64,000 nucleotides of DNA from Candidatus Babeliales bacterium (lineage in GTDB: Bacteria > Babelota > Babeliae > Babelales > JACPOV01), in contig JBAVOR010000031.1 of assembly GCA_049692255.1 (NCBI GenBank), positions 21,744 to 85,743 of the forward strand, given 5' to 3'. How positions within the stretch are numbered: the stretch's first letter is position 1; each line of letters begins with the position of its first letter. The position numbers and the translations under genes are program-made. Shown here in pieces: positions 11,167 through 11,195 of the stretch. The notes under the pieces are model-generated. The model ran no database searches. It was not told the DNA's origin and saw nothing but the letters and a program-made list of their open reading frames with translations.

Positions 11167-11195
11167 GCTTGCCGAGCCAGAAGGCCCGGATAAGC
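11167..11195 (+). repeat. Family-A extended hairpin, copy A2
   Basis: gcttg-cc-gagcc-agaa-ggccc-gg-a-taagc. Lies 6 nt from the 3' end of tRNA-Leu(CAA). Confidence 0.7.

Follow-up and report, generated by a model that had tools for sequence, protein, structure and literature searches.

Single-domain GIY-YIG nucleases of the Ssn type bind and cut single-stranded DNA next to hairpin repeats (PMC11893778), and the NTS/SRM hairpin repeats associated with Ssn flank the nuclease gene and occur in hundreds of dispersed copies (PMC11893778; Chenal et al. 2025, Nat Commun). REP/BIME repeats are short extragenic palindromes with imperfect symmetry; their flanking bases are conserved, and many copies stand alone. 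Their enzyme, RAYT (TnpA-REP), is an HUH Y1 protein, inverted repeat copies bracket its one or few genes, and the repeats have possible secondary roles at transcript 3' ends. In the IS200/IS605 family, irregular subterminal hairpins are recognised in single-stranded DNA, and bases of the element pair with the target. Free-standing GIY-YIG homing endonucleases, presumably selfish, are also found in tRNA regions, such as SegB of phage T4. The Seg proteins contain a DNA-binding domain and cut double-stranded DNA, and they are not known to be associated with a hairpin repeat family.

Here, we analysed a 64-kb stretch of DNA (the window) from a Candidatus Babeliales bacterium, in which a 29-nt hairpin, hairpin A, recurs at tRNA 3' flanks and beside two GIY-YIG genes. 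The hairpin repeat and the GIY-YIG gene of the tRNA flank look like a new nuclease-plus-hairpin element. As in Ssn/SRM, the nuclease is a small single-domain GIY-YIG protein (about 80-95 aa) whose gene is flanked by imperfect hairpin repeats, these repeats have a defined orientation, conserved flanks, and many dispersed extra copies, and the system is enriched in host-associated bacteria. In contrast to Ssn/SRM, the repeats here are anchored at the CCA of tRNA and tmRNA genes, with one arm pairing to the CCA, and tRNA is not mentioned in PMC11893778. The nuclease may differ as well: GIY-YIG 1 looks SLX1/UPF0213-like by its closest PDB chains, and the Ssn clade is CDD cd10448 (GIY-YIG_unchar_3). 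The SRM motif HGTCWYN(0-2)YYVSBRHN(0-5)WNVSBRGN(0-2)RNCYNB has a single match in the 64-kb window, a chance match inside a gene at 32557-32589, and none near either GIY-YIG gene or hairpin A. The REP/BIME features listed above, including the enzyme gene bracketed by inverted copies, are shared by the present system, but its enzyme is a GIY-YIG protein, and the fixed distance of 6 nt after the tRNA CCA is a property of the module described here and not of REP. The present system would work much as Ssn/SRM and REP/RAYT do, but it lacks the SRM consensus, and no RAYT was found in the window or in 484 kb of related loci. Full-text literature searches for tRNA- or tmRNA-anchored repeats, for repeats of Dependentiae/Babeliales, and for GIY-YIG proteins linked to tRNA or tmRNA returned nothing relevant.

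From the comparisons below, we estimate a probability of about 0.5 that a nuclease-plus-hairpin element, similar to REP/RAYT or Ssn/SRM, has its home at tRNA 3' flanks and that its solo copies have spread in Dependentiae.

Hairpin A and the 47-nt module in the window

A sequence-only reading of this DNA had described five copies of a 29-nt two-tier hairpin with an invariant bulged A. When the whole window was searched on both strands with the pattern GYTTRCC-N14-GGATAARC, exactly five perfect matches were obtained, and the two-tier hairpin with the bulged A is the predicted fold of all five. The base-pair changes reported among the five copies are each correct in the alignment, and only the position of the first copy had to be shifted, by one base. 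With up to two mismatches, the pattern gives six matches compared to 0.83 expected, and six were reached in 0 of 100 dinucleotide shuffles. Together with a sixth copy that had escaped the sequence-only reading, the copies are the following (bit scores here and below are those of the covariance model described in the next section):

Hairpin A1, 9533-9561, plus strand: pattern and fold; apex of module copy 1
Hairpin A2, 11167-11195, plus strand: pattern and fold; apex of module copy 2
Hairpin A3, 14414-14442, plus strand: pattern and fold; apex of module copy 3
Hairpin A4, 33978-34006, plus strand: pattern and fold; apex of module copy 4, inner stem fully paired
Hairpin A5, 51313-51341, minus strand: pattern and fold; apex of module copy 5
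Degenerate sixth copy (A6), 6685-6731, plus strand: repeat search family D9, alignment, and covariance model (30.8 bits, E 5e-7)

The sixth copy keeps GTCCGCCGAA...CGAAGGCTGG; its outer stem has decayed, and its inner stem is perfect but different (ATGCT/AGCAT). The gene neighbours named for the other copies were also borne out. A1 and A2 each lie 6 nt from the CCA end of a tRNA-Leu gene according to ARAGORN, 30 nt separate the end of A3 from the start codon (ATG) of the GIY-YIG 1 ORF (14473-14715), and the gap between A4 and the stop codon of the GIY-YIG 2 ORF (34010-34297) is 3 nt, with both ORFs matching PF01541. The module carrying A5 is intergenic, with groES on one side and a ribulose-phosphate epimerase gene on the other. 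Also encoded in the window are BamA, GroEL, and WD40 and ankyrin proteins; both GIY-YIG proteins have their best matches in Babeliales, and the DNA most probably belongs to a Dependentiae genome.

When the flanks were aligned and folded, hairpin A proved to be the apex of a longer unit, a 47-nt module in which a 6-bp basal stem and a GWA loop on each side enclose the hairpin (basal arm, GWA, hairpin, GWA, basal arm). Behind both tRNA-Leu genes, the tRNA CCA and the three bases that follow it make up one side of the basal stem, and the opposite arm is their complement. The basal stem reads CCAGCC/GGCTGG at A1 and CCATAC/GTATGG at A2, a compensatory change between copies. At copy 1, the module ends in three bases complementary to the tRNA-Leu(CAG) CCA. 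The modules and their tRNA genes are:

Module copy 1, 9524..9570, plus strand: 9524-9529 pairs with 9565-9570; 69.8 bits
tRNA-Leu (CAG), 9568..9654, minus strand: ARAGORN and Rfam; CCA end within the basal stem of copy 1
Module copy 2, 11158..11204, plus strand: pattern, fold, and covariance model, 72 bits
tRNA-Leu (CAA), 11202..11288, minus strand: ARAGORN and Rfam; CCA end within the basal stem of copy 2
tRNA-Arg (ACG), 14257..14333, plus strand: ARAGORN and Rfam; host tRNA of the GIY-YIG 1 cassette
Minimal module U1, 14331..14365, plus strand: sequence and fold; covariance model match at 14331-14356, 20.1 bits
CGTAGGTTG, 14396..14404, plus strand: perfect complement of CAACCTACG, the start of the trailer (14332-14340)
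Module copy 3 (U2), 14405..14451, plus strand: inverted relative to U1; basal stem TCCGCC/GGCTGG(AC); 64.1 bits
Module copy 4, 33969..34015, plus strand: right basal arm lost; 40.3 bits
Module copy 5, 51304..51350, minus strand: pattern, fold, and covariance model, 59.2 bits
Composite trailer of tRNA-Ser(GCT), 14048..14175, plus strand: begins CCATACTTCG and ends GCATGGCAGGCCAT; repeat families D10 and D12, fold, and covariance model
Composite trailer of tRNA-Ser(TGA), 14885..15012, plus strand: 97% identical to the tRNA-Ser(GCT) trailer; repeat family D10, fold, and covariance model

U1 stands directly behind tRNA-Arg and reads CCA-ACC-TAC-GCCAAGGC-TTC-GGT-TGG. It has the skeleton of the 47-nt module with only an 8-nt mini-hairpin (GCCAAGGC) as its apex, and an overlapping mini-hairpin, TTGGC-ACG-GCCAG, comes next (14353-14365). 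The 9-nt segment just before module copy 3 (14396-14404) is paired with the trailer start (14332-14340) in the MFE fold. A remnant of U1 without a tRNA (GCCAAGGCTTCG) is present at 33928, upstream of module copy 4. Minimal modules are nested in both composite trailers, at 14060-14085, 14096-14121, and 14135-14165 behind tRNA-Ser(GCT) and at 14897-14922, 14933-14958, and 14972-15002 behind tRNA-Ser(TGA), and related trailers are found on all five tRNAs of the window. In total, the covariance model recognises six full copies and about 12 minimal modules in the window, nearly all of them intergenic. In an Rfam 15 scan of the window, nothing except the five tRNAs was at or above the gathering score.

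Covariation and distribution of hairpin A

A pattern scan of 185,579 species-representative genomes gave at least 118 loci. About half of the scan loci listed match by chance; they are scattered over various phyla, and their inner stems do not pair. The other half are true copies. Among the matches listed, the true copies come nearly all from MAGs labelled Candidatus Babeliales/Dependentiae or from unclassified MAGs, taxon names being those given in the MAG titles. From these listed matches, 58 distinct copies on about 50 Dependentiae/Babeliales MAG contigs were used for covariation analysis. The hairpin-centred loci referred to below are an ascertained sample, chosen for containing hairpin A.

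In the 58 listed copies, 92.7% of the cells are paired compared to 83.0% in shuffles, and neither the observed paired fraction nor the observed covariation score was reached in any of 500 shuffles; slid controls were 17-44% paired. Pair 11/37 is CG in 43 copies and UA in 15 and is never unpaired, although the search pattern permitted all four combinations. Pair 17/30 is GC in 36 copies and AU in 21, pair 20/27 is CG in 43, UA in 8, and GC in 6, and all six pairs of the basal stem covary. Three irregularities are constant across the same copies: the bulged A, the G-T pair at 14/34, and the mismatch at 18/29, in which an A faces C, G, or A. The hairpin evolves so as to keep its shape, and its structure is under selection, as had been proposed from the window copies.

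A covariance model built from the 58 listed copies, home-made and with rough E-values, gave 90 matches at E<=0.01 in 484 kb of Dependentiae loci, versus five in 510 kb of control loci around chance hits, all five being the seeded chance matches themselves. With RNA folding parameters, 49 of the 58 listed copies fold better on the strand antisense to the tRNA; DNA parameters favour neither strand, and either strand, when folded, contains a single wobble and a single mismatch. No correlation exists between the left and right GWA loops, which therefore carry no signal of a target-site duplication.

GIY-YIG 1 and its cassette

The gene behind tRNA-Arg in the window is the following:

GIY-YIG 1, 14473..14715, plus strand: 80 aa, single domain; Pfam PF01541, E 7e-19

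PF01541 spans almost the whole protein in GIY-YIG 1 (80 aa) as well as in GIY-YIG 2 (95 aa), which are only distantly related to one another and for neither of which NCBIfam has an informative family. The catalytic-type residues of GIY-YIG 1 are intact (Y5, Y17, R27, H31, and E63); across 18 relatives, Y5, Y17, G19, H31, and N32 never vary, and conservation is at least 90% at R27 and E63. Its best matches are homologs in Babeliales MAGs (70-76% identical), and the tRNA upstream of these Babeliales relatives is tRNA-Arg, the intervening stretch again holding the modules. Relatives of GIY-YIG 1 occur in 6 of about 55 listed hairpin-centred loci, in four of these six within about 210 nt of the hairpin, and their host tRNAs include those for His, Thr, and Asp. 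The layout of the window cassette recurs behind a tmRNA in locus L124 and behind tRNA-Arg in L128. A more distant relative, on a contig labelled Geobacter, follows a tmRNA, with the CCA continued by CCAGCCTTCGCCAAGGCTTCGGCTGGC, a minimal module.

Scanning metagenomes with the GIY-YIG 1 family alignment gave 80 loci (192 kb), 66 of them with at least 350 nt upstream of the gene. A tRNA or tmRNA ends 51-258 nt before the ATG, on the same strand, in 52 of these 66; the upstream genes comprise 8 tmRNAs and about 20 tRNA species, and the GC content of the loci ranges from 34 to 68%. Two modules separate the gene from the tRNA or tmRNA. An exact complement of CCA+N3 follows within 80 nt in 30 of 51 of these tRNA- or tmRNA-linked loci (control, 1), and a 9-nt complement of the trailer start precedes the second, inverted module in 42 of 51 (control, 7), with 12 different N3 triplets across the 51 loci. 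In the 192 kb, 63 matches to the minimal module reach E<=0.01 with the covariance model. Every locus inspected has modules upstream of GIY-YIG 1, and L002, L120, and L128 have them on either side of it. The minimal GIY-YIG gene, which resides in the tRNA tails of many bacterial groups, is associated with the modules across a wide range of GC content.

Bystander tRNAs in the metagenome loci are mostly without a module where GC content is high and with a module where it is low, in a small sample. Since high-GC bystander tRNAs mostly do not have U1, U1 appears to travel with the gene. The covariance model found no full hairpin A in the 80 metagenome loci, and only some of the Dependentiae cassettes carry it, which makes hairpin A dispensable for the cassette. 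It is best explained as an apex variant, specific to Dependentiae, of a palindromic repeat module in DNA with the order 6-bp stem, GWA, G-apex-C, GWA, 6-bp stem. The partnership of a GIY-YIG nuclease with a hairpin, which the sequence-only reading had suggested, has a precedent in Ssn/SRM (PMC11893778) and gains strong comparative support for GIY-YIG 1, but the putative partner is the general module and not hairpin A.

GIY-YIG 2 and family B

The second GIY-YIG gene of the window, from a different subfamily, is bracketed by palindromes of its own:

GIY-YIG 2, 34010..34297, minus strand: 95 aa, UPF0213-like; Pfam PF01541; PDB 1zg2, E 2e-11
Family B palindromes (GCGCTCTTACCCTTCGATAC...CACTCAGGGTGAGCGC), 33739-33802 and 34314-34365: bracket GIY-YIG 2

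The best matches of GIY-YIG 2 are from Babeliales. Family B is found beside GIY-YIG 2 or its relatives in four of four loci (the window, L131, L302, and L303), on both sides of the gene in the window, L302, and L303, and in inverted orientation in L302 and L303; the apex of family B is a minimal module. The position of A4 beside GIY-YIG 2 had been taken for a recurring neighbourhood, and it does not recur: none of about 55 listed hairpin-centred loci contains a GIY-YIG 2 relative, and the relatives are bracketed by family B. A link of hairpin A to GIY-YIG 2 through A4 was rejected.

Anchoring at tRNA and tmRNA 3' ends

The reported association with tRNA 3' flanks extends well beyond the window. 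In 23 of the 58 listed copies, the module begins exactly 6 nt after the tRNA CCA, always antisense to the tRNA, and these 23 follow at least 13 different tRNA species. In the same 23 copies, the CCA and three trailer bases serve as one arm of the basal stem, with which the opposite arm covaries. A further 8 of the 58 listed copies are located 64-96 nt downstream, inverted and after a minimal module, which is the arrangement of A3.

Since these loci had been chosen for containing the hairpin, all tRNAs within them were examined too. A downstream complement of CCA+N3 with at most one mismatch is present at 51 of 64 CCA-encoding tRNAs in the hairpin-centred loci (about 29% by chance) and an exact one at 23 of 64 (about 3% by chance), compared to 1 of 68 in the 5'-flank control. 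Foldback onto the CCA was also seen at about 24 of 36 tRNAs of these loci that do not have hairpin A. Of 51 Dependentiae trailers, 43 have a second mini-hairpin (xTGGC-loop-GCCAx) that overlaps the 3' arm, and in 15 of those, from AT-rich relatives, it is followed by a T-rich tail.

These patterns could also be expected of a host RNA element, and this is the first of the alternatives to be weighed. Here, the CCA stem-loop and the TGGC-loop-GCCA hairpin would form a tRNA trailer that terminates transcription or directs or protects 3' maturation, hairpin A would be one of several allowed apices, and the GIY-YIG gene would be a passenger that favours tRNA flanks. Foldback onto the CCA whatever the apex, the second mini-hairpin with its occasional T-rich tail, the constant 6-nt offset and orientation, and the covarying basal stem all speak for such an element, as does its general likeness to intrinsic terminators and tRNA trailers, which place a GC-rich stem-loop directly behind the tRNA. 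However, the stem here takes in the CCA itself, and no terminator-like site was called, and no T-run seen, at any window copy of the module. Copies are also found far from tRNAs and inverted (A3-A6), and a generic terminator would not be expected to keep 29 nt, bulge and mismatch included, almost unchanged from genome to genome. In high-GC loci, U1 is present at the tRNA bearing the GIY-YIG gene and mostly not at bystander tRNAs, and the strand that RNA parameters favour is the one antisense to the tRNA. On balance, we regard a purely host-derived element as rather unlikely, though deserving of serious attention.

Proposed mechanism

Under the nuclease-plus-hairpin reading, the module would be the cognate repeat of the minimal 80-aa single-domain GIY-YIG nuclease, by analogy with Ssn and REP/RAYT, and the home of the element would be the 3' flank of tRNA and tmRNA genes. 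U1 would begin at the CCA, its distal arm, N3'-TGG, pairing with the CCA and three trailer bases, and would be followed by the 9-nt complement of the trailer start, the inverted U2, and the nuclease gene. The modules may fold as irregular hairpins in single-stranded DNA, where the nuclease could recognise the bulged A, the A mismatch, and the purine GWA loops and nick nearby, and nicking might then lead to copying or spread. Solo modules without a nuclease, the carriers of hairpin A among them, would be non-autonomous derivatives that have settled in most tRNA trailers of Dependentiae and at some further intergenic sites. Behind tRNAs, the stem-loops and the TGGC-loop-GCCA mini-hairpin, often with a T-run, probably end or process the tRNA transcript, so that the element would be tolerated or even useful.

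This scheme recalls IS200/IS605 in two respects, the proposed recognition of irregular hairpins in single-stranded DNA and the putative pairing of N3'-TGG with CCA-N3 as an analogue of element-target pairing. It differs in that there is no TnpA or TnpB here, and the pairing could equally be that of an RNA stem. A more far-reaching version would have the 80-aa GIY-YIG gene form a mobile cassette (34-68% GC) that homes to tRNA and tmRNA 3' ends, in which N3'-TGG and CGWAG-N3'-TG pair with the CCA end and trailer as a form of nucleic-acid-guided target choice, and whose Dependentiae hairpin derivatives, including hairpin A, replaced most native tRNA trailers. Taken as a whole, this version is unlikely, and we offer it as speculation.

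A further alternative is a cis-regulatory leader, in which alternating complementary segments would act as an attenuator-like switch on tRNA read-through into the GIY-YIG ORF and solo copies would be decayed cassettes. It draws on the alternation of CCA-N3, N3'-TGG, CCA-N, and CGWAG-N3'-TG in most cassettes, on the constant placement of the gene on the tRNA strand 51-258 nt downstream, and on the plus strand between tRNA-Arg and the GIY-YIG 1 ATG, where no promoter-like site was found. Most Dependentiae modules, however, are located behind tRNAs with no downstream GIY-YIG gene, and a leader would leave both the conserved hairpin A apex and the copies nested in family B unexplained. We give it little credence.

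Similarly improbable is an ordinary MITE or REP moved by a transposase encoded elsewhere (RAYT or an IS200/IS605- or IS110-type enzyme), with the GIY-YIG genes adjacent because both accumulate in tRNA flanks. The repeat is indeed dispersed, palindromic, and intergenic, with nested insertions, and the GTAG/CGWAG-type flanks of the module are reminiscent of REP flanks. Nonetheless, tblastn with E. coli RayT, a search of limited sensitivity since it used a single sequence, returned only noise (E>6) from the window and 484 kb of related Dependentiae loci, in line with the sequence-only reading that no RAYT was in view, and coincidental co-accumulation does not explain a module and GIY-YIG 1 kept together across 34-68% GC with arms matched to each locus. 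A viral element was ruled out, as 86 pattern matches in viral contigs comprised 85 chance matches and one true copy (L198).

Implications for Dependentiae

If the partnership of the GIY-YIG 1 nuclease and the module is real, it would be a second nuclease-plus-hairpin pair beside Ssn/SRM, unrelated to it in sequence, and family B would be a third. Its address would be unexpected, with the CCA end of a tRNA or tmRNA forming part of the recognised stem, and it would supply new minimal 80-aa structure- or sequence-specific nucleases for single-stranded DNA tools. As a practical matter, the annotation of Dependentiae genomes could mask or label the module units. A real partnership would explain why most tRNA genes of one phylum, Dependentiae, have near-identical structured trailers, and it would raise a testable question for reduced intracellular genomes, namely, whether selfish palindromes there provide the terminators or the processing signals of tRNAs.

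A likely separate nuclease-palindrome pair

Besides hairpin A, the 29-nt two-tier hairpin, the window carries a second long palindrome, family B, with the layout (GCGCTC..)CCTTCGATACACC-minimal module-CACTCAGGRTGAGCGC, in which the minimal module keeps the skeleton of the 47-nt hairpin A module under a short mini-hairpin apex. At least seven copies are present:

Family B copies in the window
33739-33802, +, family B palindrome
34314-34365, +, family B palindrome
~41985-42050, +, family B palindrome
~58925-58990, +, family B palindrome
62929-62980, +, family B palindrome
~42164, -, family B palindrome
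~63141, -, family B palindrome

Since family B brackets GIY-YIG 2, the UPF0213-like nuclease gene of the window, and also flanks its relatives at three other loci (L131, L302, and L303), the two likely form a separate nuclease-plus-palindrome pair. The block of ~860 bp that holds family B, hairpin A copy A4, and GIY-YIG 2 has on either side a perfect 28-nt direct repeat (33693-33720 and 34584-34611), whose sequence is the 5' end of a methyltransferase ORF and whose second copy adjoins the stop of lysyl-tRNA synthetase. The block resembles an insertion, one by which the start of the methyltransferase gene was duplicated or restored.

Modules behind tmRNA and tRNA genes

On a contig labelled as a Geobacter sp. 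MAG (L124, 3324-4243), the same minimal module lies directly at the tmRNA CCA, followed by an inverted second module and then a GIY-YIG 1 relative (66% identity); seven further tmRNA-linked cases occur among the metagenome GIY-YIG 1 loci (L222-L301). The two tRNA-Ser genes of the window share a 163-nt 3' end and trailer at 97% identity (14017-14179 versus 14854-15016), which suggests recent copying or gene conversion, and these trailers are built of nested mini-modules, CTAC-TTC-xx-loop-xx-TTC-GTAG. In tRNA trailers of the window (e.g., 14331-14404) and of related loci (L002-L123), four complementary segments alternate, CCA-N3, N3'-TGG, (G)CCA-N, and CGWAG-N3'-TG, an arrangement predicted to permit mutually exclusive, attenuator-like hairpins; alternatively, the segments might be traces of target duplication.

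Other occurrences and gene content

Only one of 86 pattern matches in viral contigs is a true hairpin A copy (L198, ~575; IMG/VR contig 3300027860_000020, 38 kb), and this contig may be a Dependentiae fragment, misbinned, or a virus infecting a Dependentiae host. A degenerate sixth copy in the window (6685-6731) covers the initial 30 nt of an ORF that, as called at its longest, spans 5236-6714 (-); the true start of this gene is probably further downstream.

The window also encodes eukaryote-like repeat proteins:

Repeat-protein genes in the window
52357-54063, -, WD40 beta-propeller protein
55287-56987, -, paralogous WD40 beta-propeller protein
28400-29041, +, ankyrin-repeat protein
29718-30608, +, ankyrin-repeat protein

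The two WD40 paralogues explain the internal repeat families D1-D8, and the ankyrin-repeat genes are 98% identical over 198 nt at their 3' ends (28876-29073 versus 30443-30640). The WD40 and ankyrin proteins are consistent with an intracellular lifestyle.
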